Shown here piece after piece: positions 16,537 through 46,960 of a stretch of DNA of 64,000 nt (its first letter is position 1; every line of letters starts with the position of its first letter). A program made the position numbers and the translations under genes. Below the pieces are notes generated by a model. The model searched no databases. It was not told the origin of the DNA and was given only the letters and a program-made list of their open reading frames with translations. Origin of the DNA: Eledone cirrhosa (taxonomy: Eukaryota); assembly GCA_964016885.1 (NCBI GenBank), contig OZ024740.1, positions 220,782,001 through 220,846,000 of the forward strand, in the 5' to 3' direction.

Positions 16537-19500
16537 GGTTTCTTTATTGGCCACAGAGGTTAACATGAAGAAAAACATTACAGATGGCATGAACAGTACA
16601 GGTTGATACAAAGTGGGTTTTGGTCGTGTAAACAGGTTATAACAAAATCGGGCTAGAAATAAAAAAAATTCAAACAACAAAAATTCCCCCAATAAGGGGA
16701 AACCTCCGAGGGTCACTCGTGGCGAAAACCACACAAAAAAGACCACGGCCACCCTGACCACCAGGGCAAGCGCCCTCTCTCAGTTTTCCCACCCCTCAGT
16801 CTACAGGCGCATACTCAGAACGGGCCCGTTCACTCGGACCAGACTCGCCACTTTCACCCACCTTTCAACAAACTTACTAGAAGACAGCACTTGCCTCTCC
16901 GCCCTGATATTCCTCTTCAAGTGAAACTAGAAAAAGTTAATCAGGGATTGGCCGAAGAGGAAAGTGTCCGTCTTCAACCCTTTCAACCTTGTCCACCACA
17001 CAATCTCTTTCGTCATGGCCACCAGGCAGATGAAGACTGCTTTCCCTTCCTCCTCTTTAAAGGAGGATGGCGGGGCTATCTGCACAATGGACTCAGTCGA
17101 TAACCGGATCCGTCCTACACGCGACAGCAGCTGTTCGACATAGCTCCACAAGTCAGCAATCCTCAGGCACTGAATGAGTGCGTGCAGGACGGTTTCATCG
17201 CCCTGCACGCATCTCGGACAGGCTCGACTGACAGCACCTCCGTGCCTGTAGAGCTTATCCCGAACCGGCAACGCTCCCCGGTAGCACTGGCAGGCCAGGG
17301 ATTTCTGGAAGTTGTCCATAGGCCCCGTCTGAAAGTTCTCTTGAAGAGAGCGAACAGCTGATCGTCTTCGACGCCCAGGGTCTCCCCGAGTATGTCGTCG
17401 CTCTTCCCCTCCACTAGCCCTCTATATAACGCCGAGGTAGATGTTCCACCGATACTAGTTCCCAGCTGGTAGAGGGCGGTGAGCACTTGGAGACATTCCA
17501 GCTTCCAAACGCTATCCCTCGGTCTTTTCCTGATCCAGGACTGCAGCTCCGTCAAGGAGACGAGCTGGGGAAATGCGCGTCTGGCAAACAGCGACCACAC
17601 CTGTTCACCGTCAAGGAAGCAAAAGATATGTCGCAGCCTCAGCGCATGTTTGCGCATCATCAGCCACGGCATGCTTAGTCCTCCACGCATCGGGTGTTGG
17701 CAGCAAATGGATCGTCTGACCATGGGAGCACGTCCCTTCCACAAAAAGTGGAAGAGAAGGCGCTCCATTTTGGTCAGAGTTGGTACGACGGTCAGGCGGT
17801 AGCAGATGGCGGAGGCTATGTATGCATTCGCCACCTCCGCCTGACCTTTCAGAGACAGTCTCCTCTCGGCCCATTTCTGAGTGAGAGAGGCCACCCTGCT
17901 CGTCACCTCGTTCCAGTTTTCCTCCATCTGGAGGTCCGGACCGAACCAGACCCCGAGCAATTTAACCGGTCCTTCCGTCCAGCGCCCCGCGACGCTGTCG
18001 GACGGCATGGACTTGTCTCTCCAGGTGCCGAGTTGCAAGCCCACCGACTTTTCCTGGTTTATCTTTGCTCCTGTCACCGCTTCGTATTCCTTGAGAGCGG
18101 TGCCGAGCATCTGGACGTGTTTGGTGCTCGACACCACCACGGTGACGTCGTCGGCGTAAGCTGACACGGATCTCCTGCATCCCAGTTCGCGTGGGACCCC
18201 CCTCATCGTCTCCAATTTGTGCAGTAATAGCTCGAGGGCCAGTACGTACAAGAGAGACGAGAGGGGGAAACCCTGTCGGACCGAGCGCATGATTATGAAA
18301 GGTTGCGACAGGTGACCATTCACCCTCACAATCGAGCAGATGTCGCTGTGCATCGCAGCGATCCAGCCCCTAAAAACGGTCCCGAAGCCGGCCGCCTCGA
18401 GGACCGCAGCCAGGTACCGATGGTCGACCCTATCAAATGCTTTAGATTGATACAAGTTGATCAGGGCCCCACTCGTGCTAGGTTCCTTAACCACCCTGTC
18501 TATGATGTATCGCATGAGATGGAGGTTGTCGTGGATGGATCTGTCCGGAATGGTGCATGTCTGCGCCTCTCCCACCAGATCACCGACGACAAGCACCAAA
18601 CTCTTTGCTAACATCTTGGCCAAAATCTTAAACTCTGCGTTTAGCAGAGTTATGGGCCTGAAGTTGTCTATAACGTCCCCCTTGTTCGGGTATTTTCTCA
18701 GCAGCGCCACCGCTCCCCGGCTCACAAAACTGGGAATGCTCTCGTTCTGCTGCCAGTTGCAGTAGACATCTGCCAAGAGGTCGCCGAACTAGTCTGGCAT
18801 ATACGCATAAAGCTAGTAGGGCAGACCATCCAAACCTGGCAATTTACCCCTCGTGCAGTCAGACATCGCTTCCCGTATTTCACCTGCTGTCATCGGCTTT
18901 TCGCAGCACTGCGCTGTGGTCGTCGAGAGCCGCGGCAGTCCGTCGAGATATGCACCGAAGTTCATACTCCGATCCGGCCCACCGCCGCTCCTGAACATCT
19001 GCTCGGGTTCGAGCAACATGCGCCCGTTTTGATCAGGCAAAGACCGTATTGTGGACTTGTTGCCACGTCGCACCTCCACCACCCAGGCCCATTGAACGGC
19101 TTTCTTCTCCTCTTGTCTTATAGCACGAGCTCTAGCTCTGACAACGCAGCCTTCATGCGTTGTATTGAAGAATTGGTCGAGTGCCAATCTTGCCGCAAGC
19201 ACGTCGGTTGTGATGCCTGTCCTAAACGCCTGTTTTAGCTTTCTAACTAACTCTCCCTCTACTCTATTTTCCTCTATCACTACTCCTTTGTTAAACCTTA
19301 TCGATTCTACTCTAATAGCCCTCCCCAGGGTAAACCACCACCTGTTGTTGACGATCGCACCCGTCACCGCACGTTTAACTAATTCGCTAATCCGGTCTCT
19401 GTAAGCTTTGCGCGCCGGTAACAACGCGTTCAACTTTCAGTAACCGAGCCCTTACCTATGGAGTCTATCAAAGTCAACTTCCGTGTAGTTGACTACTTTA

Positions 19501-22455
19501 AATTGTGGACAACCCACACTGGCCTTATCTGTTCCCCTTCAGAATACCCTATCTAAATACAATCTGGATGACCCGATGCGGTTTGCCCATGTCCACATTG
19601 GCACATTCGGATAATCCAGTCTATATCTGTCAGACAGTTCAAAACGTCTGAGCAGGTTGTTGAGGCTTTTACACCCTCCTGCTCTGTCTACTAGCCCCAC
19701 ATAATCCCAGCCTGCATCTAAGATACCGTTCCAGTCGCCCACTAACACTAAAGAGCGGGGCGTTCCAAGAAAGGTCTCTAGACGTCTGAAGAAATATGGC
19801 CGTCCTACCCCTGTTGGGGCGTAGACGGCTACTAGCCTGCAAGCATTGGCTTCGCTGCCGGTCTCGTCCAGCACCACCGACTTACCTTCTGGGTTCAGGA
19901 AGATGGCCCGTATGGCGAGATCTAAGCCTCTCTGAAAAAGCACAGCACCCCCCCCCCCCCGATCCTGGACGGCTGGGAGATGCGTATACATCGTAGCCGC
20001 CGAAGATCGGTGCGAAGGCTCGTGCTTCGGAGATTCTGGTCTCGCTGATGGCCACCACATCTATGTTTAGTGACCTGAGGAACGGGGTAAGTGAGAAAGG
20101 ATCACTTACCTTGATTGTGTGGGGAAGGGACAGTAGAACCGTCCCTTCGGCTGGTCATGGGTGTCTCCAAGATGATATTTGTATAAATTCTCTTGGAAAG
20201 TGACCCTCTGAAATCCCCAACCACGTTGGGGAATTTTTGTTTTAATTGTTTGTAATCTTCGAGTTCAATTTCCACAATGTTAATATTTTTTGGTAATGTT
20301 CTTGGTGTTGGTGGGGTGTGTTAATTTACGTCTGAAATATCGGTGTGGTGTTTTATGTGTTCCATTAATCCTCGGTCTGCAATGTTTATGGCTGTTTACT
20401 TTTTTGGGGGAGGAGTGGTTTTGTTGCTGTTTTTTTTGCTGTTGATGTTGGGTGTGTGTGCTTTGTTGTGTTTGCGATGTTGCTGTTTGTGGTGATGCTG
20501 GTGGTGATGTGATTGTTGTTGGTGGCGATGCTTGTGGTGGTGATGGTGGTGGCGTTGCTGCAACTCGCCTTGTAGCCTTTACCCTTCTTTGTTTGTCCTC
20601 GCCTTTGGAGAGCGAAGCTAAGTGGTTCTTTCGTTTTTGTTTTTTGTGGCAGACCTTTTGCCACTTCACTCCCACCTCATACTCCATGTCGGATTCCATG
20701 GTGTCTGGCAGGGTTATATGCTCCACGGCTGTTGGTGGTGGTAGTATAGCACTCTCCGGCGATTTTGTTGCTGGTGCAGCTACTGCAAATGTAGCTACTG
20801 GTGTTGCCACCACTGCTGTCGCTGTTTTAGTTGTCCGTAGCCTTGGTATGGTTGCCACGGACGTTGCCCTCCTACTCACCGTTTAGATTGATCCAAGTTG
20901 ATCAGGGCCCCACCCGTGCCAGGTTCCTTAACCACCCTCTCTATGATGTATCGCATGAGATGGAGGTTGTCATGGATGGATCTGTCCGGAATGGCGCATG
21001 TCTGCGCCTCTCCCACCAGATCACCGGCGACAAGTGCCTCTGTTGCCTGCCCTGCTCTTCGTAGCAGCGGATCAGGCGTCTGAAGGAGGGGTACCCTCTT
21101 CTTGGCTGTTTTATGCGGGCAAAAGGCCCTGAGGTAACCCTTTTGCCCACAGAGATAGCACTTTGGGTGCCTTCCTTCCACGCTCATAGGGAGTTGCAGT
21201 CCTTCCTCGAGGTCTATGATATCTGGGATGGCCTCGATACACTCCTGGTCAGTTTGTATTAGCATTTACATGCCTATTCCTGACCAGTTCTCTCTTCTCA
21301 TTCTCTGTATTTGTTGTATGGTGGTCCTGTCCTCGATTCCAGCAAAGACAGACGCAGCCAGCCAAGGAGTGGGCACGTCGGGCGGGACCTGGGTCACTTT
21401 GACCCTCACAATTTTCTGCACGCAGTAGGAGAGCACCAAGACTATCTCCTCACTCTTTAGGGTTTCCAAAGAGTGAGACTTCTTCTTGGGGGCTGGCGAA
21501 AAGTACGTCTACTGTGGCATACTTTTTGTCTCGGGTGATGTGGGTTTTACGCGCCCAGACGCACCCCAAGGCCTTTTGGATTTCAGCCTCCGTAGCTCTC
21601 TCCTCCCGATGTGACATTTTGCTTACGGTGCGGTAAGTCACCGTCCGTAGTTGCTGGTCCTTGAAAAAATCGGGTGGAGGTTTCAGGAAAACTCTATTGT
21701 CATTTCTTGTCACCATGGCCCTTGCGACTGATATCTCCTCCGCCTTGACTAGCATTTTTTCTATATTTCGGGCCACACCTGCGAAAGAAGTGGCCCCTTT
21801 TTCACCGGCACCATTATTACTGTCGCTACTGCTGCTATTGGTCTTGTTGTTGGTGCTGTTACTGTTGCTACTGCTACAAACGGTGTTGTTGGTGTTGTTG
21901 CTGTTATCACTGTTGTAGTTGGTTGTGTTTTTGGTGCCACCGTTGTTGTTGTTCTCGGTGCAATTTGTATTGTTGCTGTTGGCGTTGTTGTTGTTTATTT
22001 TCTTGTTAGTGGTGTTAATATCGTTGTTGCATTTTTTTCTGTTGGCTGTATTTTGGTTGTCGCTGTTACTGTTGTAGTTGGTGTAGTAATCTTTTCAAAA
22101 TTAGTGTTCTCAGTGTTGTCATTGCTGTCTTTGTTCACGTTGTTTGTTGTGTCAATTTCTGTGTTCACCGTAACCCTCCTCACAACTTTTACACCGTTGT
22201 CACACGACAGAAGGTATATCGCTGGGGTGGGGGTGGGGGTGGGGGGCATGACTCAGCCATGTGTTTTGATAATTTTTGAAAGTAGAATGTTCAAATATTT
22301 GGGCCAATAGGCCCAAATATTATACTTTCCCCTTCACAGGGCAAAGTCCAAGGGCTTATGTCCCTTACACAATAACAAAAATTTAACAATAATAATTTGT
22401 GACAGGTAAATAAAGCAACTTACTGGGAGCGAGCAAAAAGACGTCCGATCAGACC
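16537..22455 (-). mobile_element. L1/Tx1-type LINE copy A, full length, degenerate
   Basis: ORF1 with CCHC knuckle (CYLCGQKGYLRAFC), APE (VAVYAP, GDWN, YLDR), RT (PGLDGLP, FRPITLLN, KAFDRV, SVRQG, YADD), C-terminal CPRC..H....C; 3' end GTGGCCAATAAAGAAACCATTATT; 5' flank (AAT)n. Confidence 0.95.
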
Positions 22456-22499
<44 letters not shown>

Positions 22500-22507
<8 letters not shown>

Positions 22508-23430
22508 GTAATGATAACAATAGCCCTTACCACAATAGAAATAACAACAAAAAGCATTGCAATTGCCGAAACCCTAACAACTGTCCACTTCAGGGCCACT
22601 GCCTGATTAGAAATGTAATCTACAAATGCACAGTGACGACTAAAAATAGCACTAAGTCTTACATAGGCGCCACTTCTAATGAGTTCAAGACTAGATTTAG
22701 ATCGCATCTCCACTCTTTTATAAACAAGAAACTCAGGTTTTCTAACTCCCTTGCTAATTATATCACACTATTAATAGAATCTAGCATTAGCTACACAACA
22801 CAGTGGAGTATAGAAGATCAAGCAACGCCTTGCAACTTTAAGAAGAATTGTCAGCTTTGCCTAATGGAAACGTATTATATAGTAAGCTCAACCCCCACAC
22901 TCATTAATAGTAGAGCTGAGACGGTAATAAATTGCAGCCACAGGCTACAACACTCGTTCTACAACTGGCCTCTAGACCAATGATAACCTCTTATCCCACA
23001 GCTATCTACATTACACCACCATTAAGTTCTTCATACGATAGTTCGGCTTAAGTACAGTATTTAATGATGCTCTTAACCAGCCACCTAACGTTTGCCTAAG
23101 CACTGTCCATCACCTACTGAGTTAGACTCACCCTGCTAAACCATCCCTTTAGCTGGGATATACAAAATGTTCTAGGGTGCTTTTCTGCCTTTTCACCGTG
23201 CAGTTGCCTCCCTTGGGGGATTATGCCCCTTTCACAGTCACCATTAATATTTTGGTCTACTATGCATGGAGACGTGAATCTATTGTGAATATTTTCAACC
23301 AGCTCTGACGGTATATTTATTGATGACATTATATTAACAAACATTTCTCTGAAGAGCCCGCATGCGGGTGAAACATTATGCAAGATTTATATAAAGAACT
23401 TGTTATAACGGCTAGTAACTCCTTCATTCA
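22500..23430 (+). mobile_element. PLE fragment, right half: GIY-YIG endonuclease and 3' region
   Basis: VIYKCTV...SYIGAT..FKTRF..H..SF...CQLCL.E motifs (ORF 22633-22983); HHR-like motif downstream. Confidence 0.85.
23346..23385 (+). ncRNA. Minimal hammerhead motif in PLE 3' region, cleavage triplet mutated
   Basis: TCT CTGAAGA GCCCGC-AT-GCGGGT GAAA CATTATG CA AGA. Confidence 0.6.
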
Positions 23431-23438
23431 TTCATTTG

Positions 23439-23504
<66 letters not shown>

Positions 23505-23579
23505 CAAAAGAATGAAGAATAACATGGTCGGTTGTACAAAGGGTTTATATAAGTATTAACGATGCCTAGAGTCCAGTAT

Positions 23580-23940: not shown

Positions 23941-24747
23941 GACGAGCATGATTCGATCCGGCAATCTCACTATCCATTCAAAGCCACCTGGATTTAAAAT
24001 GTCTGCTATACTGACGCCAATGGACAAAACTTTACACATCTTCACTATAGTTAACTGTCAGTTGACCAATCGGACATTAAATCAATTGGCATCCCTCTAC
24101 TTTTTTATAGACACATCCTCTCATACACAACGCTACCATCAATCTTCACTTCCATTAAGATAATTCCTTCAAAATACCCAAACCTTAATCACCCGTCTGT
24201 TATTGTCTTTTTATTTTTTATCTTTTGTTTTTTTTTAAAATTATTTTTATTATTTTTTATTCTTTATTTCATACTCCGTCGATTCATGAATTTAACCCAC
24301 TGTATTGGAATGGCGCTAATTCGCCATCATCCCATTTTATTACACTGACCAGTATCTTGCTTATCATACCATCTCTTCATACCACTTCCGTCACTTTTTC
24401 CATGTTGTTATTATTATTAAGGTAGTGAGGACTATCAAGTGGTAGTGGCAGTGCCACAACAAAATGCTCAGTACACTGTAAAGTGATTGGCATTAGGAAC
24501 AGAATCCAGCAACAGAAACCATGCCAAAATATGGAATGTATATATGGGCAAGACAAGGTAATCTGTCCTGTCAAGTCTTGGAGTATGACAGCACATCCAA
24601 CCCATGCCAGCATGGAAAACAAATTTCTGATTAGGATGATGATATAAATAAAAGTATCAACACAATCAGAAGGTTAATAATCCTTTCTAATTTAGGCACA
24701 AAGCCAGCAATACGAGGTTGTAGAAGTTGATTAAAGTAAAAAAAGGA

Positions 24748-24935
24748 TTGGCAGTATCGGTAGAGGGTCGGACGCCATGCTTTCCAGCATAGTTACATCC
24801 CTTTACGATCTGAGTTCAAATCCCGCCGAGGTTGACTTTGCCTTTCATCCTTACGGGGTCGATAAAATAAAGTACCAGTAATGCACTGGATATTTGCTGG
24901 CCTTGTGCCTAAAGTAGAAACAATTATTATTATTG
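24748..24935 (+). mobile_element. tRNA-derived SINE (Meta-like core) with (ATT)n tail
   Basis: A/B boxes, core, tail GGCCTTGTGCCTAAAGTAGAAACAATTATTATT. Confidence 0.9.
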
Positions 24936-24947
24936 TCATTATTATTT

Positions 24948-27900
24948 GGACGCACATGTGTGAAGACGTACAAGTCGGCGTGGGGGAAAAGGTTCGTAAT
25001 TTTAAGCTGTTTTAAAGTATCATTTTTTGTATTTTCTTGTCGATAACGAAGCATAAGGTACTAACCTTGGTTCCAAGGAAGGGAGACCTCTCAATATTCG
25101 GACTTTAAGCCCGAATATTCAGATTTATTTTTAAAAACTTCGAAAACAAATCCCCCCCCCCCCCCCCCAATGGAAATTTTCGACCTTGAAACGGCAAACA
25201 ACGTACAGTTCAAAAGTTCAAAAACAGCCACGATAGATCTCACCACAACTACTACTACTACTACTACTACTACAGACATGTCTGTCGTCCACTCCACTGA
25301 ATGTGAAGGCAAAACACAAGAGTTACCATCACTTCTCCGTTCTGTGATAGTAGCAGTACCATCTCAAAACGACATCACCACCACCACCACCACCACCGCC
25401 ACAACAACTCAGAACAACAACGACAATAACACCGACAGCCTCAATGTAAACACTGATGGCGGTGGCAACAGCAACAACAAACAACAACAACAACAACAAC
25501 ACCAACAACAACAACAAGAACGACAACACCAACAACAAGAGCAACTGAGGCGCCACCTTTGCAGATGCAGCAGCGAAAACAAAGCGCTTCTTCAATGTAG
25601 ATATTAACGATAAGGATCCACAGTTGGCCCAGGCGTGGAGGTTAATTAAACGAGAGAAGTCCTGGGCAAACCTGACCATCCCGGACGGGGCAATAGCGAC
25701 CATGCAAAGGAGGACGATGTACTTTCGATGTCAAGCAGAGGTCGAGGCTGCTTTAAAGTGCATCGGAAGTGACATCGAGTACAAAGCAAAGGCCAAGCAG
25801 TTCGGTACCATCTCGGTACTGTTCAAAACCGAGGCCCTTGCTATTAAGTACTCGGTGACCCACTGCAGAACGGAACGCATTATCATGCACCTGTCCTACA
25901 TGGGCTAAAGGACAGTTAAGGTCTGCATTCCCAGGATACCACCAGGAACGAACATATGGTGGCTCCTGGGATGTATAATCGAGGAGGGGACAGACACTAC
26001 CCTCCTGGATATCAAAAGGACAGACAGAGAAGACTGGTCCGGAATGGATTTGGAGATTTTTCTCCAAATGAAACCAAGGACATCAACAACATACCGGATT
26101 TTGCCCGCCTGCAGGACGGGACAACAATCCAATTAATCACTGAGGGAAGAAGGCCGCACTGCTTCGTCTGCGGGGAAGCAACGCATCTGCAAGCCTTCTA
26201 CCCTCAGCTCAAAAATGCAGGGGATCAGAAACCTCTTTTGTAGCCAACGCCAGTGTCAGCACGGAAAGTTGCACCACCACCACCAAAAACAACACCAGCA
26301 ATGACACGGGTAACCTCACCAACATCAAAAACAGTCGGACCACCACCGACATGGAACCAATCAAAGAGGAAAACGGGGAAATCTTTCCCACTTCCCCTAC
26401 CCCTCCCATTATACACATAGACAAAACAATAAATGCACACACAGACACAGATACACTCACAGCCACACACCCTTTGTCTTCCAGCAGTGAAGATGAAGGA
26501 AAACCAAAAAAGTGCAAAAAACAAAAAAACAAAAGAGAAAACTCACCAAAAAAAAGCCCCAACAAAAACACAAAAACATACACAACAAAATATACAGACA
26601 CCACTAACGCAAACACTTCCCCAATAACATCAACATGAACACCACCCCACAATCCCCGAAACGCAAACAACCTAAACAAAGACAAGAACAAATAAACACA
26701 CAGACACCTGAAATTGCAGACACCACACCTACAACAAACACAGACATACCCGAAACAACACCACACAGTCACCAAAACGAAAACAAATAAAACCACACCA
26801 AAAAAACATTAAAAACTACGTGCTAGTCAGAAGGGCGATATAAATTGATGGTCCTCTTAGCACGAAGCGAGGACATCCAAACAGAGGGAGAGATCTTTGA
26901 ATTGAGCACATTTTGCGTGCCAGAAGATTTGCATCTGGTGCCAATGTCGCTCGATTCCTACAAAGAAATTCGAGAGAGCTTTCCTTTAGACGTGGGAACC
27001 CCGAATGTGAAACCCACATCGAGACCTTTAAAGAGATCCCCAAAAGAAACCCCACCAACCATCGAGATCGAACCACCCGACCTTCACAAGACCCCGGGAG
27101 GTAAGTAAACCTCCCCTCTCTCTTTTAGCTTGCCAACATGGCCATACTAAGAGTAGTAAGTTTAAATGTTCGCCGCCTGGGGTCACCTTGGAAGCAGGGT
27201 CGCCTGCTCAACGACCTCATGTCTCTGGAAATGGATGTGATTGCCGTCAGCGAGACCAGGATTTCCGATACGCGCGCACTAGCCCCAATTTTCGACGACT
27301 ATCAGATCTTCGCATCTGTTAGCAGGCCGGGAATGGGAGGTGTGGTGACAGTGCTGTTTAGGAAAGGCTTGGATCTCGAGGTAAGGTCGATCTTCCGGGA
27401 CCCGGACGGTATGTCGGTGGTCCTGGATGTGAGCAGTAGCGAAGGTGGTGCCTTTAGACTGCTGGCCGTTTACGCCCCTACTGGAGCCGGACGACCGGAC
27501 TTCTTTAGGCGCCTGGAAACCTTTCTGGGTACGTCTCGCCCTCTACTGTTAGCGGGGGTCTGGAACGGCATCTTAGACACACGCTGGGATTGTGTGGGAG
27601 TAGCTGATAGGAGTGGGGTGTGGTGCAAAGGCCTCAAACACCTAATCAGCTAGTTCCAATTGTCTGACAGGTATCGACTAGATTTCCCTAATGCGCTAGT
27701 GTGGACGTGGACCAACCGCAAAGGGTCATCTAGATCGTATATAGACAGGATCTTCATTAGGAAAATAGATAGAAATAGTGTAGGCTGCCCCCTTTTTAAA
27801 ACGGGCGCCTATTCAGATCACAAATTTGTGATCTGTATAGTCGACCTAGATAAAACGCGTAGGTTGGGACCGGGTTACTGGAAGCTGAACATGTCATTTC

Positions 27901-30852: not shown

Positions 30853-30891
30853 GTCATTACTATTTTACGCTTCTATCCACTCATAATTGCA

Positions 30892-30973
<82 letters not shown>
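30892..30973. repeat. (ACT)n microsatellite
   Basis: Direct reading. Confidence 0.95.
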
Positions 30974-30975
30974 TT

Positions 30976-32810: not shown

Positions 32811-33911
32811 TTGCTCGGGGTCTGGTTCGGACAGGACCTCCAGATGGAGAAAAACTGGAGCGAGGTGACGAGCAAGGTGGCCTCCCTCACCCAGAAATGG
32901 GCCTTGAGAGGAAGCTGTCCCTGAAAGGATGGGCGGAGGTGGCCAATGCGTACATCGCATCCGTCATCTGCTACCGCCTCACCGTCGTCCCTTGACCCGG
33001 CCCAACTCTCACCAAAATGGAGCACCTCCTCTTCCGCTTTTTGTGGGCGTCGAAGAAGATCAGCTGTTTGCTCTTTTCCGGAGAACTTTCAGCCCAGGGC
33101 CTATGGATAACTTCCCAAAATCCCTGGTCTGGCAGTGCTACCAGGGAGCGTTGCCGGTTCGAGATAAGCTCTACAGACACGGAAGTGCCGTCAGCCGAGC
33201 CTGTCCGAGATGCGCGCAGAGCGACGAAACCGTCGTGCACGCACTCGTTCAGTGCCCGAGCATTCCTGACTTGTGGAGCCATGTTGAGCAGTTGCTGTCG
33301 CGTGTAGGACTGATCCGGTTATCGACTGAGTCCATTGTGCAGATGGTCTCGCCGTCTTCCTTCGAGGGGGAAGGGCAGGCGGTTTTCATCTGCCTGGTGG
33401 CCATGGCTAAAGAGATTGTGTGGGGGACAAGGTTGAAAGGGTTAAAGACAGACACTTTCCTCTTCGGCGAATCCCTAATTAACTTTTTCAAGTTTCACTT
33501 GAAGAGGAAAATCAGGGTGGAGAGGCAAATGCTGCTTTCTAGCAAGTTTGTTGAAAGGTGGGTTAATGTAGCGAGAATGGTCCGAGTAAACAAGACCACT
33601 CTGAATATACGTCTGTAGTTTGAGAGATGGGAAAAATTGAGAGAGGGCGCTTGCCCTGGTGGTCAGGGTGGCCGTGGTCTTTTGTGTCGTTTTCGCCACG
33701 AGTAACTCTCGGAGGTTTCCCCCCTATTGGGGAATTTTTCATTGTTTCAATTTTCATTTTTATTGTTTATATATATATGTTTCTATGTCTTTTTCTTTTT
33801 CTTTTCTTATATAAATAATAAAAATATTTACACGAACAAAACCCACATCGTACCGTCCTGTGCTGTCTGTGATGTTTTTCTTGATGTCAGCCCTTGTGGC
33901 CAATAAAGAAA

Positions 33912-33952
<41 letters not shown>
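32811..33952 (+). mobile_element. Tx1-type copy D, 5'-truncated, internally deleted
   Basis: C-terminal ORF2 incl. CPRC..H....C; 3' UTR similar to copy A; (ATT)n tail. Confidence 0.9.
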
Positions 33953-35665
33953 GTTCTTTGAGTCTCAGTCATTGATGTTAGTTAACTGGAAAGTTTGTTG
34001 AAATGAATATCAAGCCACTATCTGCAGCCTCAGATATTCAGGACGTATCGGAGGGTTCTTGCCGTTCCCAGCAAGCATGCCTTTTGAAGTGTTCCAAAAA
34101 GCGGGGCGGGGCCAATTTTCTTTAACCATCCCTGGAAACTTTTTGAGATAGTACCTAGTGCGCCTATGACAATCGGGACCACTTTGACTTCATGGCAGTT
34201 CCAAATCCTTTTTACCTCCCACTTTAAGTCCTGGTATCGGTTAATTTTCTCCCTCTCCTTCTCTTGTACTCTCGTGTCGAATGGGCAGGCCACATCCACA
34301 ATCAGGCACGATCTTTTTTCCTTGTCCAAAACCACCAGGTCAGGTCTATTGTGTTCCAGTTTCTTGTCCGTCTGTATCCTAAAATCCCACAGCACCTTCA
34401 CCTGATCGTTCTCCATCACCGCTTCTGGCTTATGCTCATACCATTTCTCAGAATGTTGTAACTTGTTTACTTTGCATAGATGCCAGTGGATCACCCTGCC
34501 CATCACATCATGTCTCCAACCTTTATCGTGAGTCTGGGCTAGGTGTTTACACTCGGATACAACGTGAGCCACAGTCTCCTCTCTCTCTCCACAGATCCTG
34601 CACAGTGGGCTAGCCTCCTCCTTGTAAATATGGTGTTTCAGCCACTTCGTTTTGAGGGCCTGCTCCTGCGCAGCCATTAGCATTCCTTCTGTAGCCTTTT
34701 TAAGGTCTCCTCTTCTCAACCAGTTCCATGTCTGTGGATCTCTGAATTCCGTTTTCTCAAAGAAGGTACTATGAAGGGATTTTTCATGAAGGTTGCTCTT
34801 TCTCCTTGCTGTTATTTCCTCCTTGGACATCTCCTGGTCTATTGTCCTCTCCTTCAGTACAATTCTGAGCATTGGCTCCTTACTATCGGTCACGTATTTG
34901 TGTAGGTTGTTTTTCTCCATTTGAACACAGTCCTCTATGCTGATAAGACCTCTTCCACCTTCAGATCTCCTTAAGTAGAGTCTATCGACATCATTCCTCT
35001 TGTGGAACATGTTGTAGATAGTCAATAGCTTCCTAGTCTTCCTATCCATTTCTTTTTGTTCAGCAACATTCCATCTCAGAATTCCCGCACTGTACCTAAT
35101 AATAGACACAGCTCGGGAATTTACTGCGCTTATGGCATTTCTGCTGTTCAGATGTGACTTCAATACGCTCCTTACTCTCCGAATGTATTCAGTTCTTAAC
35201 AATTCCTTCATTTTTTTGTTCTTTATGCCATCAGCCTCCAGAACGCCCAAATACTTGTATCCTTCCTCAGAGTCAATTTCCTTTATCATCTCACCTGTTG
35301 GTATCTGGATTCCGTTACTTCTGCTCAACCTACCCCTCCTCATCACAAGGACTCCACACTTACTAATACCAAATTGCATATATATATCACTGCTGAAAAT
35401 ACGGACAGTGTCAACAAGCACATCCAACTCCTTCTCACTCTTCCCGAAGAGCTTAAGATCGTCCATGAAGAGGAGGTGATTGATGGTAAGCCCTCCCTTT
35501 CCCAACCTGTATCCTGCTCTCACTTTTCGCAGTACACTGGTCAGGGGCATCAGGGCAAGAACAAACAACAGAGGGGACAGACTATCTCCCTGGAAGATAC
35601 CTCTCTTGATCTTCACGCTTCCCAAGGATTCTCCAGTTGATGTCAACTCTGTTTCCCAGGACCTC
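33953..35665 (-). mobile_element. R4/Dong-clade RLE retrotransposon copy 1, 5'-truncated, ORF still open
   Basis: GIFQGDSLSP, HLLFMDD, EGGRGL, CRICGEREETVAHVVSEC, RHD, RPDLV..D..P.D (RLE); flanked on both sides by (AAT)n. Confidence 0.93.
34030..35665 (-). CDS. RT-thumb-CCHC-RLE polyprotein fragment of R4/Dong element
   Basis: Uninterrupted ORF in the track (34030-35721; the first residues derive from the microsatellite). Confidence 0.85.
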
Positions 35666-35700
35666 ATTATTATTATTATTATTATTATTATTGTTGTTGT

Positions 35701-36020
35701 TATTCCTTGAATCTCAGTCATTGATGTTGGTTAACTGGAAAGTCCGTTGGATTGAATATCAAGCCACTACCTGCAGCCTCAGATATTCAGGACGTATCGG
35801 AGGGTTCTTGCTGTTCCAAGCAAGCATGCCTTTTGAAGCGTTCCAAAAAGCGTGAAGGGGCCGATTTTCTTTAACCATCCCTGGAAACTTTTGGAGATAG
35901 TCCCCAGTGCGCCTATGACAATCGGGATCACTTTGACTTCATGGCAGTTCCAAATCCTTTTCACCTCCCACTTTAGGTCCTGGTATCGGTTAATTTTCTC
36001 CCTCTCCTTCTCTTGCACAC
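35701..36020 (-). mobile_element. R4/Dong copy 2, short 3' fragment
   Basis: Nearly identical to the 3' end of copy 3; (AAT)n both sides. Confidence 0.9.
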
Positions 36021-36050
36021 TATTATTATTATTATTATTATTGTTATTGT

Positions 36051-37215
36051 TATTCCTTGAATCTCAGTCATTGATGTTGGTTAACTGGAAAGTCCGTTGG
36101 ATTGAATATCAAGCCACTACCTGCAGCCTCAGATATTCAGGACGTATCGGAGGGTTCTTGCCGTTCCAAGCAAGCATGCCTTTTGAAGCGTTCCAAAAAG
36201 CGTGAAGGGGCCGATTTTCTTTAACCATCCCTGGAAACCTTTGGAGATAGTCCCCAGTGCGCCTATGACAATCGGGATCACTTTGACTTCATGGCAGTTC
36301 CAAATCCTTTTCACCTCCCACTTTAGGTCCTGGTATCGGTTAATTTTCTCCCTCTCCTTCTCTTGCACTCTCGTGTCGAACGGGCAGGCCACATCCACAA
36401 TCAGGCACGATCTTTTTTCTTTGTCCACAACCACCAGGTCAGGTCTATTGTGTTCCAGTTTTTTGTCCGTCTGTATCCTAAAATCCCACAGCACCTTCAC
36501 CTGACTGTTCTCCATCACCGCCTCTGGCCTATGCTCATACCATTTCTCAGAATGTGGTAGATTGTTTACTTTGCACAGGTGCCAGTGGATCACCCTGCCC
36601 ATCACATCGTGTCTCCAGCCCTTATAGTGGGTCTGGGCTAGGTGTTTACACTCGGACACAATGTGAGCCACAGTCTCCTCTCTCTCTCCACAGATCCTGC
36701 ACAGTGGGCTAGCCTCCTCCTTGTAGATATGGTGCTTCAACCACTTCGTTTTGAGGGCCTGCTCCTGCGCAGCCATTAGCATTCCTTCTGTAGCCTTTTT
36801 GAGGTCTCCTCTTCTCAACCAGTTCCATGTCTGTGGATCTCTAAATTCAGTTTTCTCAAAGAAGGTACTATGAAGGGATTTTCCCTTAAGGCTGCTCTTC
36901 CTCCTTGATGTTATTTCCTCCTTCGGTATCCCCTGGCCTACTGTCCCCTCCTTCAGTACAGTTCTGAGCATTGGCTCCTTACTATAGGTCACGTATTTGT
37001 ATAGGTTGTTTTTCTCCATCTGAACACAGTCCTCTATGCTGATAAGACCTCTTCCACCCTCAGATCTCCTTAGGTAGAGTCTATCGACATCACTCCTCTT
37101 GTGGAACATGTTGTAGATAGTCAATAGCTTCCTAGTCTTCCTATCCATTTCTTTTTGTTCAGCAACATTCCATCTCAGAATTCCCGCACTGTACCTAATA
37201 ATAGACACAGCTCGG

Positions 37216-37216
<1 letters not shown>
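36051..37216 (-). mobile_element. R4/Dong copy 3, 5'-truncated
   Basis: ORF 36129-37208 with CCHC and RLE; (AAT)n both sides. Confidence 0.93.
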
Positions 37217-37266
<50 letters not shown>

Positions 37267-40200
37267 GGCGACCTACGTAGGAAATCGTATTATCGTGAGC
37301 TCCGCAAAGGTTTGTTGTTTTCGTTTTTTTAAAATTGCCATTTATGGAAAATTTTTGTTGTTAAATATTTATAAAGTCACAAAATTTGCTTTCGGAAAAG
37401 GACACTCAAAAAGATTGGGGCCTTGAGCTCAAAATTTAAACTTTTATAATTATCAAATAAAAAATTTCTTTGAAAAAATCATGGACGACTCACAGCTACA
37501 CCAAGTAGCTGAGAGCCTTCCTCATAAACTAACACCTCACACCAACACCACCATTGTAAATATTACTACGTTTGCCAACACTAAAAATATAAGCAGTAGC
37601 AATAATTTAAATTTGTCTCATGCAGACATTCATTTCCCGCCCTTACCAATGACGCAGGTGTTGAGGCCGCCACCCCCACCACAGCGACAACAGAAACAAA
37701 AGAAAAAAATAAATTATCTCGTGACATCGAAATGGATTCTCCCAGAATGGACTCTTCCACACCGAACACCACTGACGCCACCACCACCACAACTGAAACT
37801 AAAAATAACAATAACAAAAGTAACAATAACAACAACAGCAACAACAACAATGAGAATAACAACATCGTATCTTTTGCTAAAGCAGTTAAATCATGCGAAA
37901 CAATCCAGGTAACTCAGGAGGAACTAGATGAAGCCAAGGAAATGGTAAAGAAAGATGGGTACAGGGTCAGCCTCACCCCTCCCACCAAATAAAATGGAGC
38001 ATCGGCGCCTATGCACCGTGTCTTATCGGACGATTAACATAAAATCGCGCCGAGTGGAACGGGCATCCGAGTCACAAATCCAAAAAGCTTTGGGACATGT
38101 GTGGGCCAAAAAAATCCACATCAGACGTGCGCAGAAATATGGAACCGTGGACGTGTTCTTTGGAACACCACAGGAGGCCAGAGAACACTCCATGGCTCCA
38201 TTAAGAAGTGACGACTTCACACTCGTCCCAAGCTATTGTGGCCAGAGACTCGTGAAGATCAGGGTGACCCACGTTCCACCGGCCATCGAAATTCCCTGGC
38301 TAATGGCTGTCGTCTAAGCAGGAGAACTGGTCCGGATCTGGGATGGAGCTCCTGATCCAAGCGGACCAAAAAAGCATTGAGGAGATCCCAGAGGTAATAG
38401 ACCTCACTGACGGCGGCCACCTCACCGTAATCGTCGAGGGCAGAAAGGCCTAGGTGTGTCGTTTGTGGTGAAGGAACCCTCCTAAGGGCTTTCTGCCCTC
38501 AGGCTAAAAGGTTGAGGCCACCTCTCTTACCCACCCCAGTGACACAACCATCAACACCACCAGCTGAAGAAATGGCAGCAACAACTGTAGCAGCAACAAC
38601 AGAAGCAACTGTAACAACAACAACCCCAGCAACAGTAGCAAAACCAACACCACCACCACCACCCAACGCGCCAGAACTAGTACCAGCGCCTACACCATCC
38701 ACCACGCCACAACCAAAACCAACGCCTGTGGAGGATTTTCCACTCCCCGACCTATCGCAACTGGAGACAGATTGTGACGACGAGGAGTGGGAAATGGTAC
38801 CAGAAAAAAAGAAAAAAAGAAAAAGAAGCCAAAAAAGAAAAAATCCCCTTCCTTCCCCCCAAAAAAAACAAAATACAGAGGGAAACAAATAAACTATCAA
38901 ACAAAAAAGTTAGGACAGCTATGCCACCATCCACACCAGCATCACCAACCCCATCACCACAAACACCAACACCATCACCATCACCATCATTAACCCCAAC
39001 ACCACCATCACCAACACCACAAAAGTCACCAAAAAGCGAAACAGAAACAAACCCACAACAAACGCAAACAAAACAAAACAATCAAAACGATACACACTAC
39101 ACAGCATTAAATTTGAACAACAACTAATTATTACACTACATCCAACACAACACCAGCATCACAGAAAAAGACTACACAACAGCCCAAAAGTTCACACCAC
39201 CTCCACACATATAAATCACTCGCATCACACAGAAAACGTACACGACACTAAAACAAAAATTCCCCAAAGACATCGGAGACTTCCGACAAGCACTCTCCAG
39301 GAGGATTTATAAGGACATCCTTCCGGAGGAGGCCACAAGCAGTGACAAGGATGGAGAAACCATCCTTCCTCTACGAGAAGTAAGGTAAGTGGTCTTTCCC
39401 ATCTTTTGCACTCCATTTCAACATGACCTCACTCAGAATAGGCAGCATAAATGCGCGTGGCTTGGGGTCGTCATGGAAGCAGGGCCACCTGCTCAACGAC
39501 CTCATGTCACTAAACATAGATGTAGTGGCCATCAGTGAGACCAGAATCTCCGAAGCACGGGCCTTCGCACAGATCTTCGGCGGCTACGATGTGTACGCAT
39601 CTCCCAGCCGTCCTGGATCGGGGGGAGGAGTTGCTGTGCTTTTTCGGAGAGGTTTGGATCTCGCCATACGGGCCATCTTCATGAACACAGAAGGTAAGTT
39701 GGTGGTGCTGGACGTGACCATCGGAGACGGGTAAGCTTTCAGGCTAGTGGCCGTCTATGCCCCGACAGGAGCAGGGCGGCCTGATTTCTTCCGGCGTCTG
39801 GAGACCTTTCTTGGAACATCCCGCTCTTTAGTGTTAGTGGGCGACTGGAACGGGATCTTAGATGCACGCTGGGACTGTGTGGGATTAGTGGATAGGGGAG
39901 GATGGTGCAAGAGCCTCACCAACCTGCTTAGGCGTTTTGAACTGTCTGACAGGTACCGATTGGATTTCCCGAATGTGCCAATGTGGACTTGGACAAACCG
40001 TATCGGGTCATCCAGATCATATCTAGATAGAGTATTTTGTAGGGAAATAGATAGGTCTAGCATATGCTGTCCACAATTCAAGATATTCAGCTACACGGAC
40101 CACAAATTCGTGATCTGTGTGGTTGACTTAGATAGGCTTCATAGACGAGGACCCGGCTACTGGAAGCTAAACGCGTCCTTACCAGCGCACAAGGCATACA

Positions 40201-43105
40201 GAGACCGGATTAGCGAACTAGTTAAGCGGGCGTTGACGGGGACCATCGTCACCAACAAGTGGTGGTTTGCTCTGAAAAGAGCGATTAGAATAGTGTCCAT
40301 TAAGTTTAGTAAGGCTTTAGCAATAGAGAAAAATAGAGCAGAGGGAGAACTAGTTAGAAAATTAGACGTACTTGCGGCGAAATTGGTCCATGACCAATTC
40401 TTCAATGCAAAGCACGAAGGCTGCGTTGTCAGAGCTAGGGTGCATGCTCTCAGACACGAGGGGACGAAGCCGCTCAATGGGCCCGAGTGGCGGAGGCGCG
40501 TCGTGGCAACAAAGCCACGATCCGGTCACTGGTGGACCACCACGGGCGCATGCTACTCGATCACGAGCAAATGTGTAAGCTTTTCAGCGACACTTCGCTC
40601 AGCTGTTCGGGGGCAGCGGCGGGCCGGATCGAGGCGGAGTGTTGCGTAAAGCCGATAACAGCCGCTGAAGTACGGGAAGCAATGACTGGCTGCAGAAGGG
40701 GAAAATCGCCTGGTTTGGATGGTCTGCCCTATGAACTTTACGTACAGATGCCAGACATGTTCGGAGGCCTCTTGGCGGACGTCTACTGCAACTAGCAACA
40801 GAACGGGAGAATTCCCAGCTCTGTGAGCCGAGGAGCGGTGGCGCTGCTGAGAAAGGATCCGAACAAGGGGGATAACAGATAATTTCAGGCCTATAACTCT
40901 GCTAAACGCAGAGTTCAAGATTTTGGCAAAGGTGCCAGCAAAGAGGTTGGGGCTTGTCGTTGGTGGTCTGGTGGGAGAGGCGCAGACATGCGCCATTCCC
41001 GACAGATCCAGTCACGACAACCTCCACCTCATGCGATACATCGTGGAGAGGGTAGCTAGGGAACCTGGCACGGGTGGGTCCTTGATCAATTTAGATCAGT
41101 CGAAAGCTTTCGATAGGGTCGACCATCGTTACCTGGCGGCAGTCCTGAGGGCGGCTGGCTTTGGGCCCATCTTCAGAGGCTGAATCGCTGCAATGCACAG
41201 CGACATCTGCTCTGTGGTGAGAGTGAACGGTCATCTTTCGGAACCGTTGAACATCATGCGCTCGGTCCGCCAAGGATGTCCTCTCTCGTCCCTCTTGTAC
41301 GTATTGACTCTCGAGCCATTACTACACAAACTGTAGACGTTGAGGTGTGGGGGGGGGGGGGGGCGAACTAGGATGCGGAAGATCCGTGTCAGCATATGCG
41401 GACGATGTCACCGTAGTGGTGTCGAACGCCAAACACATCGAGGCGATCGGCACTACACTAAGAGAATACGAAGCGGTGACAGGAGCAATGATCAACCAGG
41501 AAAAGTCAGTGGGCCTGCAGCTCGGCACCTGGAAAGGCAGGTCCATGCCGTCCAACAGCGTCGTCGGGCGCTGGACGGACGGACCGGTTAAATTGCTAGG
41601 GGCCTGGTTCGGTCCGGACCTCTAGACGGACAAAAACTGGGACGAGGTGACGAGCAGGGTGGCTTCTCTCACCCAGAAGTTGGCCGAGAGGAAGCTATCC
41701 CTGAAAGGTCGAGCGGAGGTGGCTAACGCGTACATCGCGTCCGTCATGTACTACCGCCTGACCGTAATGTCTTGTCCTAAGTCCCGCCTGACTGCGCTGG
41801 AACGTTTGCTCTTTCGCTTTTTGTGAAAGGGACGCGCTCCGATGGTCAGGCGGTCCATCTGCTGTCAACCCCCGCTACGTGAAGGGCTGGGCATGCCGTG
41901 GCTGATGATGCGCAGACACCCGCTCAGGCTACGACATCTCCACCTCTTCCTCGACGGTGATCAGGTGTGGTCGTCGTTTGCTAGACGCGTCTTTCCCGAG
42001 CTCGTCTCCTTGACGGAGCTGCAGTCCTGGGTCAAGCGAAGACCTAGAGGGAGCGCTTGGAGACTGGAATGTCTTCAGGCACTCACAGCCCTCGACCAAT
42101 CGGGAAATGTGATCGGTGGAAACTCCACCTTGGCGTTCTATAGAGGATTAGTGGAGGGGAAGAGCGACGACGTACTTGGGAAACTCTAGGCGTCGACGAA
42201 AATCAACTAGCCAATCTCTTCGGAAGAACTTTCGGGCCGGGGCCTATGGATAACTTCCAGAAATCCCTGGCCTGGCAGTGCTACCGTGGAGCTTTGCCAG
42301 TTCGGGATAAACTCTACAGGCATGGAGGTGCAGTCAGCCGGGCATGTCCGAGATGCGCGCAGGGCGACGAAACCGTCCTGCACGCACTCGTCCAGTGTCC
42401 GAGCATTGCTGACTTGTGGGTTTATGTCGAACACCTGCTGTTGCGTGTAGGACGGATCCAGCTATCAGTTGAGTCCATCGTGAAGATTTCCCCGCCCTCT
42501 TCCTTTAGCCGAGAAGGGCAGGCAGTTTTTATCTGTCTGGTGGCCATGGCGAAAGAGATAGTATGGTGGACACGTTTGAAAGGGCTGAAGACGAGCACTT
42601 ACCTCTTCGGTGATGCCCTGATTAACTTTTTCAAATTTCATTTGAAAAGGAAAATCAGAGTAGAGAGGGAAGTGCTCTCTTCCCAGCATTTTGTTGAAAG
42701 ATAGGTGAGAGAAGCAAGAATGGCCGGAGTGAATGGGCCTACTCTGAGTATGTGTCTGTAAATTAAAGGTGGAAAACTGGGAGAGGGCACTTGCCTTGGT
42801 GGTCAGGGTCACTGTGGCCTTTTACTGGGCTTTCTCCACAAATGTCCCTCGGAAGTCTCCCCCGTATTGGGGAATTTTTCATTGTTAATTTTTTTGTTAC
42901 ATCCTCTGTTTTTGTTTTTTACACGCAGAAATGCCCATTTGTACCGCCCTGTATTGTCCTGTACTGTCCTTAATGTTTACTTTATGTAAACCCTTGTGGT
43001 TAATAAAGAAAGTATTATTATTATTATTATTACATGTCCTGTACTGTCCTTAATGTTTACTTTATGTAAACCCTTGTGGTTAATAAAGAAAGTATAATAA
43101 TTATT
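37267..43105 (+). mobile_element. L1/Tx1-type copy E, full length, degenerate, with duplicated 3' terminus
   Basis: Starts GG after (ATT)n; ORF1 remnants; ORF2 ATG 39423 (SINARGL, YTDHK, YADD); last ~70 bp repeated (42955-43030, 43036-43105). Confidence 0.95.
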
Positions 43106-43435
43106 AGGGCTGTGTATTGACAGTATCGGTAGAGGGTCGGACGCCATGCTTTGACGCATAGAGTTACGGCCCTTGCCATTCTGAGGTCAAATCCCGCCGA
43201 GGTTAACTTTGCCTTTCATCCTTACGGGGTCGATAAAATAAAGTACCAGTAATGTACTGGGTAATTGCTGGCCGTGTGCCAAAAAGTAGAAACAATTATT
43301 ATTATTATTGGTCTAAACAATTATTATTATTATTATTGGTCTTGCCTTTCATCCTTACGGGGTCGATAAAATATAGTACCAGTAATGCACTGGGTAATTG
43401 CTGGCCTTGTGCCTAAAGTAGAAACAATTATTATT
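43106..43435 (+). mobile_element. SINE plus partial SINE duplicate with (ATT)n tails
   Basis: Same family as 24748. Confidence 0.9.
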
Positions 43436-45125
43436 GGTCGAAGCGGACGTATTTTGCTCGCTCCCAGTAAGTTGCTTTATTTGCCTGTTAAAATTATTTG
43501 TTGTTAAATATTTCTTGTTGTGTAAGGGATATAAGCCCTTAGACTTTGCCCCGTGAAAGGGAAAGTATAATATTTGGGCCTTTTGGCCCAAATATTTGAA
43601 CTTTTTTTACATGTTAAAAAATTTACGGAGAAAAAAAAACATGACTGAGCCACGCCCCCCAGCGATATGTCGGCTATCGTGCAACAACGACGTAGAAGTT
43701 CAGAGGAGCGCTACAGCGAAATTAACACACATTGATAACACAAACACCACCACAAACAATGTAAACAAAGACACCAATGATACCAATGAGAACTCTAATT
43801 TTGACAAAAATGACAGTAACAGCGACAACGAAAATACAGATAACAAAAAAAAAAATAACAAATGCAACAATATCAACACCACTAACATGAAAACAAATAG
43901 CGACAACACCAACACCAACAATACCAACTGCACCGAGAACAACGGTGGCAACAAAGACAACAATGATAACAGCGACAGTGATAACAACAACACCAACAAG
44001 AACAACGACAACGACAACAACACCCCCCAACGAAAACAAGAAGAAAACTTTCGCTGCGGCAGCAGCAAAAGAGAGGCCATGCTTCAACATGGACCTCTCA
44101 AACAAAGATGAAAAGTTGGCCAAGGCATGGAAGCTCATCAAGCAAGAGCAAACCTGGGCCAACGTAACTGTCCTGGTAGAAGCTATTGAGGCAGTGGAGC
44201 GCAGAACGGTGCATTATAGATGCATCTCAGCACAAACCAAAAGGGCAGCTTTAATCCCACAAGCAGATGTCGAAGTCGCACTGAGGTGCATCAGAGAAGA
44301 TACCGAATACATAGAGAGGGGCAGACAGTACGGCACCATTTCGGTGTTGTTCAAGTCAGAAGCCCTCGCTATGAAACACGCTATGACTCCTTGCAAAACC
44401 AGCAAGGTCTTAATGTACCCCTCCCACATGGGAAAAAGAACGGCCCGTCTCCGCATTGCCAGAATCCCACCAGGACTTGATATGTGGTGGCTTCTGGGAT
44501 GTGTGATTGTGGAGGGGACGGATACCGTCCCTATAGAAGTGACCAGAACGACCAGAGAGGACTGGTTCGGGGTTGACCTGGATATCCTTCTCCAGATCAG
44601 ACCTGGATATCCTTCTCCACATCCGCCTTCAGAATGAGACGGTCATTCACATTATGACCGAAGGTAAAGGGCCGCAGTGTTTTGTTTGTGGGGAAAAACC
44701 CATTTGCGAGCCTTCTGCCCTCAACTGCTGAAAGAGGCCAGGGGTCGAAAGGCTCCACTGCTGCCGACGCCGGCGCGAGGACCACAACCAACACCAGCAC
44801 CGGAAAAACCACCAACAACAACACCAATAGAAAGACCACCACTAACATTGACCACCCAGGGGGGAAACGAGGAAAGCTGTCAAATGCCCCCCCCCCCCCA
44901 AAAAAAAATACACACACCAATAAAAACATAAACATACATACAGACACACTTACAGACACAGACCCCTCATCTACCAGTAGCGAAGATGAGGGAAAACCCA
45001 AATCCCTCAAAATACAAAAAAGGAAACACAAAAAGAAAAAAAAAATTCAACAAAGCCCAAAATCACCCACAAAAAAAAACGCAGACACCACCCACGCAAA
45101 CATCTCTCCAATAACACCTTCATTT
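43436..45125 (+). mobile_element. Tx1-type copy F: 5' UTR and ORF1 only (3'-truncated)
   Basis: 5' UTR matches copy A; ORF1 core similar to copy B; CFVCG..HLRAFC knuckle. Confidence 0.85.
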
Positions 45126-45199
45126 TCCAAGAAAAGTAGAATTGTACTAGAATTATGAGTAATCATAACATTTCCATTCATTCAACGTTTATATTATTT

Positions 45200-45385
45200 G
45201 GATTGGCAGTATCGGTAGAGTGTCGAACACCATGCTTTGCAGCATAGTTACGGCTATTTACGGTTTGAGTTCAAATCCCACCGAGGTTAACTTTGCCTTT
45301 CATCCTTACGAGGTCGATAAAATAAAGTACCAGTAATGTACTGGGATAATTGCTGGCCTTGTGCCAAAGGTTAAAACAATTATTT
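45200..45385 (+). mobile_element. SINE (Meta-like family)
   Basis: A/B box, core, tail. Confidence 0.88.

Positions 45386-46893: not shown

Positions 46894-46960
<67 letters not shown>

Follow-up and report, generated by a model that had tools for sequence, protein, structure and literature searches.

What brings retrotransposons with two different kinds of endonuclease into the same (ATT)n microsatellites, and is the repeat their target or only their tail? The question is raised by positions 16537-45385 of a 64,000-nucleotide stretch of the Eledone cirrhosa genome (contig OZ024740.1, positions 220,782,001 to 220,846,000; hereafter the window), where Tx1-like elements with an apurinic/apyrimidinic-type endonuclease (APE), elements resembling R4/Dong with a restriction-like endonuclease (RLE) and a short interspersed element (SINE) are joined by ATT tracts. 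We give a probability of about 80% to the reading that this span is a stack of independent insertions into pre-existing (ATT)n, in which the Tx1-like elements entered one way and the R4/Dong-like elements the other through nicking of opposite strands.

ATT repeats as the target of the Tx1-like elements

Within the span, the 5' ends that start with GG follow ATT: at 22455 (minus strand) and 37267 after 16 units each, at 43436 after three, and at 24948 after an interrupted tract and an extra T. The 3' end GTGG(C/T)(C/T)AATAAA, followed by 6-7 nt and ATT, occurs six times (16554 on the minus strand; 30825, 32779, 33896, 42996 and 43076). The tract is degenerate at 16554 and 43076, and the latter end lies within an 80-bp local duplication. 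Both patterns had been described in an original prediction made from the letters of this DNA, which proposed an (ATT)n-specific APE-type Tx1 lineage sharing its niche with an RLE element.

To place these ends in the 3.0-Gb genome, we queried it with the first 185-203 bp, from GG, of Tx1-like families A, B and C, and for each search fetched the best-scoring 30 of 40 scored loci among 504-3096 candidates; each set contains the window's own copy, and two of the C loci resemble one duplicated locus. The background sample was 60 fixed-position 10-kb stretches (600 kb, unbiased), in which 85 of 52,080 23-nt windows (0.16%) hold at least three ATT units and motifs of two units occur about 15 times as often (2.5%). 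At least three ATT units stand no more than 20 nt upstream of all 30 intact 5' ends of family A, all 30 of family B and 20 of 30 of family C (27 of 30 with at least two units), and three or more AAT units precede none of the 90. The original prediction had named flanks and empty sites without ATT as the outcome that would count against it; upstream flanks genome-wide carry the repeat, as do the empty sites described below.

Since a transcript could carry the upstream repeat with it, 5'-truncated copies were examined as well. Of 90 loci collected by their 3' ends, 60 extended past the sequence fetched, and in 30 the 5' boundary was internal. Thirteen of these 30 follow at least three ATT units by script, and 15 of 26 on review, in which L096, L292, L323 and L340 were dropped as rearranged or at a locus edge and the boundaries of L102 and L115 were corrected; a further three of the 26 show two units or a duplication. 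Target duplications of 12-22 bp, a range based on four cases, were found at 24923/30843 of the window, at L392/L401, at L297 (15 bp) and at L110 (12-17 bp), the last two being off-tract insertions that start at a short ATT-like motif.

Paralogous sites show the target before insertion. One lies in the window itself, an empty ATT/GTT microsatellite (55328..55390, plus strand) in the 3' untranslated region (UTR) of an RTE-like element (55252-55440); in its filled counterpart at L392/L401, a C element of nearly full length and a SINE piece interrupt the same RTE (92.8% identical), which continues on the far side, with about 17-20 bp duplicated. In a second repeat, an (ATT)3 is empty in several loci (e.g. 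L052, L131, L154, L174) and split by a SINE piece and a full A element at L006/L284. Because a duplication carries a marker and sites occur both empty and filled, ATT predates the insertion: the repeat is the insertion target, not merely the tail. Flanks, truncated copies and two pre-insertion sites thus bear out the (ATT)n-preferring APE-type lineage of the original prediction.

Full-length genomic copies of the Tx1-like elements are about 5.9 kb. Their open reading frame 2 (ORF2) matches Exo_endo_phos and RVT_1 in L220 and RVT_1 and zf-RVT in L212, and the window's pieces show the same domains. The protein is closer to human L1 ORF2 (E 3e-39, over endonuclease and reverse transcriptase (RT)) than to R2 (E 2e-21, RT only). 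A separate ORF1 has a CCHC knuckle, C-X2-C-X4-H-X4-C, in the translations of L218 and L221, and Pfam gave no Transposase_22 match in the two ORF1s examined. ORF1s of CCHC type without that domain are consistent with Tx1 (PMC5203782). The Tx1 label is a probable assignment from architecture, not from a tree with named Tx1 families; no named Tx1 protein was among the matches listed in the homologue searches, and our tree holds unnamed homologues only. ESM Atlas returned only generic APE-RT clusters, and among the matches listed the APE-type element has a single close homologue with a species name, an Argonauta hians protein of 59% identity. The family B 5' region is present in three other organisms (four sequencing runs examined). 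Eighty metagenome relatives (25-41% identity) have no common flanking repeat, a few having (CT)n ends and one ending in (ATT)4, and are too distant to use; four such distant relatives (L454, L455, L468, L469) carry (CT)n at contig ends, recalling the (TC)n target of the Tx1 family Kibi.

At least five or six Tx1-like sub-families share the ATT niche. Two further 5'-end types were seen after ATT (L218 from 6447; L340 from about 1644), one of which begins with GA rather than GG. The 5' UTR/ORF1 types and the ORF2/3' types are combined differently among families (16537-22455 and 24948-30842 compared with L212), which suggests exchange of 5' regions.

Opposite polarity and the architecture of the array

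Three RLE pieces lie on the minus strand between ATT tracts of the window, as had been predicted. A full-length copy elsewhere in the genome (L240) is 4543 bp long, with a single frame and one stop; the RLE protein has an RT followed by CCHC and PD..D..K motifs read in translation, has no APE, and is closer to R2 than to L1, the Pfam REase match reaching an E value of only 0.37. We take it to be R4/Dong-like from motif similarity and from its target, no named reference being among the matches listed. At 70 loci, one of them past the locus edge, the 5' boundary follows at least three AAT units in 22 of 23 distinct full-length copies and 30 of 45 truncated or alignment-limited ones; one of 69 also shows ATT. 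The 3' ends are followed by AAT or AAC-AAT. An R4/Dong element could be expected to carry an HDV-like ribozyme at its 5' end; an Rfam scan of 16000-46000, where the RLE copies lack a 5' end, gave nothing at gathering level and chance matches only. A second R4/Dong-like family (L179, 5248-6915), with 34% protein identity to the window's, has 3' ends that adjoin AAT-sense tracts, and its 3' end motif has 27 matches in the fetched loci.

TAA microsatellites are the described target of Dong-type elements, including in a snail (PMC3812793); read on the sense strand, TAA repeats precede the element at its 5' side (PMC3774820). Octopus is known to have Dong-R4 families with recent activity (PMC13282606, PMC9115989), and the recently active families given for Octopus vulgaris include both Dong-R4 and L1-Tx1 (PMC13282606). 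As TAA targeting is established for Dong, the RLE half of our finding is expected biology.

Orientation was counted at 731 tracts in loci picked around elements; interrupted tracts may count twice, so the ratios matter rather than the totals. Among 5' ends that abut tracts, the ratio of expected to opposite orientation was 138:2 for Tx1-like elements, 101:2 for RLE elements and 102:3 for the SINE, and where recognised elements flank a tract at either end, orientation was concordant at 182 of 187 tracts. The opposed polarity of Tx1-like and RLE elements claimed by the original prediction therefore holds, near-strictly rather than strictly. In target-primed reverse transcription, the orientation of an insertion is set by which strand is nicked, and the polarity follows from this logic. 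The APE endonuclease would nick the AAT strand, and the freed 3' end would pair with an (AUU)n RNA tail, whereas the restriction-like endonuclease would nick the ATT strand. Duplication, tail and slippage would then leave repeat on both sides, so that one target becomes two and arrays could grow mostly without elements breaking one another. New tracts are likely seeded by SINE tails, by CR1-like tails and by microsatellites in RTE UTRs. In the unbiased 600 kb, 15 of 77 ATT tracts of at least three units adjoin one of the three element types, and 9 of 11 with at least five units adjoin some retroelement (five by script, four by eye). A CR1-like element (L027, L158, L172, L200, L205; RVT_1), whose clade we presume from its motifs, has an (ATT)n tail in which Tx1-like elements and SINEs have landed.

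When the span is compared with itself, with Pfam and, by BLAST, with full-length genomic copies, it falls into two parts, an inverted Tx1-like element and a 20.6-kb array (24745-45390), with 2.2 kb of unrelated sequence between them:

16537..22455, minus strand: Tx1-like element, full-length, decayed, type D 5' end (APE, RVT_1 and zf-RVT Pfam matches; BLAST to genomic copies)
22456..22522, minus strand: (ATT)16 and degenerate units, immediately 5' of the preceding element (sequence inspection)
24745..24922, plus strand: tRNA-type SINE whose ATT tail region took in the next element (BLAST; motifs)
24923..24947, plus strand: interrupted ATT tract with GTC marker, recurring at 30843-30865 as a target site duplication of about 22 bp with one mismatch
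24948..30842, plus strand: Tx1-like element, full-length, family C (older) (RVT_1; 81-92% to L392/L401)
30892..30973, plus strand: (ACT)27 microsatellite, a spacer within the array (self-comparison)
30975..32796, plus strand: Tx1-like element, 5'-truncated and internally deleted, a B-like body and then the 3' terminus (BLAST)
32797..32811, plus strand: (ATT)5 (sequence inspection)
32811..33913, plus strand: Tx1-like element, 5'-truncated, family F, internal deletion at 33046 (zf-RVT; 93% to L111)
33914..33952, plus strand: (ATT)13 bounded by the 3' ends of a Tx1-like and an RLE element, which lie tail to tail
33953..35667, minus strand: R4/Dong-like RLE element, 5'-truncated (RVT_1; CCHC and PD..D..K motifs in translation; 95.9% to full-length L240)
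35703..36021, minus strand: short RLE 3' piece (98.9% identical to the end of the 36053..37216 copy over 351 bp)
36053..37216, minus strand: R4/Dong-like RLE element, 5'-truncated (97% to L240)
37217..37266, plus strand: (ATT)16 bounded by the 5' junction of an RLE element and the 5' end of a Tx1-like one, which lie head to head
37267..43012, plus strand: Tx1-like element, full-length, family B (APE and zf-RVT; 89.6% to L221)
43034..43104, plus strand: local duplication of the last ~60 bp of the preceding element and its tail (copy-specific terminal variant in common)
43106..43309, plus strand: SINE, full, with (ATT)5 tail (BLAST)
43310..43435, plus strand: SINE pieces, very short and 5'-truncated (their duplications extend 4-5 bases into the start of the Tx1-like element downstream)
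43436..45118, plus strand: Tx1-like element, family A, 5' part, the 3' part lost (92.8% to L212)
45199..45390, plus strand: SINE outside any ATT tract (BLAST)

The array of the original prediction corresponds to the stacked insertions of 24745-45390. The copy at 16537-22455, which carries at 20882-21038 a 157-bp insert from its own RT region, was rejected as a member, being inverted and separated by the unrelated sequence. Neighbouring copies belong to different families and are only 66-85% alike. Two repeats inside the array, of 350 bp and 80 bp by self-comparison, are or may be local duplications: the 35703..36021 RLE piece may be an independent insertion or a local copy of the end of 36053..37216, and the 80-bp repeat at 43034 was rejected as an independent insertion, as it carries the terminal variant specific to 37267..43012. 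The duplications of the SINE pieces at 43310..43435 include the first bases of the family A element, so these pieces arrived after it. Outside the hub there are five more SINE copies, located on both strands and mostly without an ATT tract. The SINE at 24745..24922 has what we take to be A-box- and B-box-like motifs.

A sister lineage, the SINE and competing explanations

The unbiased sample also contained relatives of the Tx1-like families, 67-75% identical to them in DNA, that are flanked by (ATCT)n instead (L199, L204, L186, L155 and L251-L280; head to tail in L199), with 3096 first-look candidates genome-wide. Their 3' ends are followed by at least two ATCT units in 16 of 30 fetched matches and by ATT in none of the 30. 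Upstream of truncated 5' ends, at least two perfect ATCT units occur in 9 of 22 flanks (background 0.2%) and at least two TCTA within 40 nt in 12 of 22 (background 1.6%); two TAGA or two ATT units occur in none of the 22. The two lineages are about 60% identical in the compared C-terminal part of ORF2. An ORF2 C-terminal tree of 37 rows, some of them short or frameshifted pieces, unites the genome copies with one database protein in a single clade (100/99), within which an ATT group of 22 rows (93/88) is separate from an ATCT group of nine (94/93). Target and tail have thus likely changed together within the Tx1-like lineage.

For the SINE, which had been expected to share the microsatellite target, the outcome was different. 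Among 56 SINE-type tails scored in the unbiased stretches and the window, at least three upstream ATT units occur in 5 of 56 copies and at least two in 24 of 56 (background 2.5%), and microsatellite specificity was rejected. Duplications of 8-18 bp were recognised in 24 of the 56, and 23 of these 24 begin ATTA or TTAT. The preferred site of the SINE is a short ATTAT motif, and its own tail brings in ATT and so seeds tracts. Its 3' end has a hairpin with the loop CTTGT. Tx1-like 3' ends have the same loop, on a stem that shows G-C in families A and F but A-T in B; the pair counts leave out the ATCT family, as in 27 of its 30 ends the search pattern caught a CTTGT further upstream. When the terminal 29 nt of two SINE copies were aligned, four Tx1-like ends matched (shuffle p <0.0005 to 0.037) and five other long interspersed element (LINE) ends did not (shuffle p 0.15-0.86), and the length and start of SINE duplications also agree with those of Tx1-like ones. 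Comparison of these ends makes it rather probable that the SINE is mobilised by the Tx1-like machinery through the shared 3' hairpin. At L142, about 12 tandem copies of the SINE's 3' 78 bp form a SINE-derived minisatellite.

Several observations weigh against this account of targeting and of the SINE. Eight of the 26 reviewed truncated Tx1-like copies have no upstream ATT, two of them following (CTT)n; another detail of these eight is that two directly adjoin an RLE 5' break. Fifteen of the 45 truncated RLE boundaries lack three AAT units, some of these being alignment ends in diverged copies, and the choice of best-scoring loci under-samples old copies. The bootstraps of the ATT and ATCT groups, 93 and 94, are below the tool's star threshold. 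The tail match between SINE and Tx1-like elements covers only about 29 nt, SINE 5' junctions usually have unique sequence between ATTAT and the SINE start, and full-length A and B elements, unlike the SINE, start right at the tract, a difference that a shared enzyme does not obviously predict.

The most sceptical view, that (ATT)n is only element-encoded, as a tail or a transcript-carried upstream repeat, and the array mere adjacency or local duplication, could appeal to the ATT tails of at least three units at 80 of 90 Tx1-like 3' ends (median perfect tail 5.5-9 units), to the two local duplications in the window, and to the many upstream tracts that are tails of earlier elements. Truncated copies with internal starts nevertheless follow ATT, adjacent copies come from different families, and the marker-bearing duplications and empty paralogous sites have largely refuted this view already, so that we regard it as very improbable. 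It is a different matter whether the microsatellite is recognised by the endonuclease. Targeting might instead be due chiefly to an (AUU)n RNA tail that pairs with the target once a T/A nick of loose, L1-like specificity has been made, as a short ATTAT motif suffices for the SINE, the off-tract Tx1-like copies L110 and L297 begin at such a motif, tail equals target in both sister lineages, and the one ATCT-lineage copy compared shows only a modest difference in the predicted specificity loop. Yet all 60 young full-length copies of A and B stand in tracts of at least three units, although two-unit motifs are so much commoner, and endonuclease swaps changed the target in TRAS1/SART1 (PMC7265360); we consider tail pairing as the main determinant unlikely, if deserving of attention.

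Somewhat less likely still is that some other LINE with an ATT tail, such as a CR1-like one, mobilises the SINE, which would then only coincide with the Tx1-like elements. The genome does hold a CR1-like element with an (ATT)n tail, the SINE's 5' junctions are unlike those of full-length Tx1-like copies, and bivalve SINEs have reported L2/CR1 partners (PMC4824008). The CR1-like element, however, shows no match to the SINE tail over its last 29 nt (p 0.15 and 0.44), and no LINE with the SINE tail was found among 315 tail matches, the 24 without a SINE core being, by eye, truncated SINEs or chance matches. We retain the Tx1-like elements as the SINE's candidate partner.

Known systems and other repeats of the window

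Precedents exist for each ingredient. The Tx1 families Kibi and Koshi of teleosts and those of crocodilians target (TC)n, (TTC)n and (TTCC)n/(TTTC)n microsatellites (PMC4494074, PMC3812793); they are likewise APE-type L1-group elements, whereas the present lineages use (ATT)n and (ATCT)n in a cephalopod, and neither repeat is among the targets given in the consulted parts of those papers. Dong, DongAg and DongBg (R4 clade) have the TAA target seen here, with nothing essential different. TRAS1 and SART1 (R1 clade) enter one simple repeat, the Bombyx telomeric repeat, from opposite directions, and their endonuclease mainly sets the specificity (PMC7265360); both are APE-type and telomeric, whereas here an APE and an RLE element meet in dispersed microsatellites and a SINE joins them. 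In crocodilians, SINEU is likely mobilised by the Tx1 family Tx1-Mar (PMC4494074), a link drawn from a common target, whereas the tRNA-type SINE here has the LINE's 3' hairpin and tail. The SaTar arrays of guayule and rice are linear, non-nested runs of unrelated elements brought about by insertion into microsatellites (PMC5907723); array-building is alike, although SaTar are non-autonomous Mutator-like DNA transposons of plants.

The literature consulted, with Repbase and Figure 3 and the supplements of PMC4494074 outside the search, yielded neither a Tx1 family specific for ATT or ATCT nor an account of APE and RLE elements sharing tracts; the words 'target' and 'nested' do not occur in the text of PMC13282606 that was consulted. 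An ATT-targeting Tx1 family could be catalogued already in Repbase or in that figure and its supplements, though we lean towards thinking that it is not. New here are the targets (ATT)n and (ATCT)n, the sharing of dispersed tracts by APE and RLE elements, the switch between sister lineages and the proposed SINE link. The most inclusive picture is of a Tx1-like lineage of octopods, not described before, that divided into sisters specific for (ATT)n and (ATCT)n, drives through the hairpin a SINE that ranks among the most abundant of the genome and, with Dong-like elements on the opposite strand, makes and fills most long ATT microsatellites; we hold it tentatively, at slightly less than even odds.

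If this is true, APE and RLE elements would have a self-renewing niche in common, and the lineages would offer a natural enzyme pair for the study of target switching, in which control of target choice by endonuclease or by RNA tail would be directly testable by swaps. The finding itself brings two further targets to the APE-type site-preferring LINEs, names a possible partner for an abundant SINE and offers a mechanism for repeat hotspots and the origin of microsatellites in cephalopod genomes. ATT microsatellite markers in such genomes would often fall in element junctions.

Other repeats occur in the window. An old Tx1-like 3' end at 62254 (62229-62546, minus strand), outside the span and 68% identical to family A, lacks a clean ATT tract. 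Just past the ATT tract of the inverted copy, a remnant without a Pfam match (22520-22900) resembles, by its motif, a Penelope-type GIY-YIG endonuclease. At 12305-13441 lies the C-terminal part of a restriction-like-endonuclease retroelement that ends in (TA)n, with a related piece at 53003-53429; it has no Pfam match, and from its motifs we assume that it resembles the CRE clade. It is followed by a Tc1/mariner-like transposase remnant (13511-14209) with weak DDE_3 and HTH_Tnp_Tc3_2 matches. A compound (GA)n/77-bp tandem array (46857-47907) stands beside the window's sole assembly gap (N, 47923-48122). Towards the end of the window are an RTE-like element with C-terminal C2H2 fingers (54389-55440) and several short RTE-tailed repeats that end in (ATGT)n (55412-58737). 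Another RLE-type 3' fragment (56940-57430, minus strand) has its 5' break after (CATA)n, possibly a further microsatellite preference.

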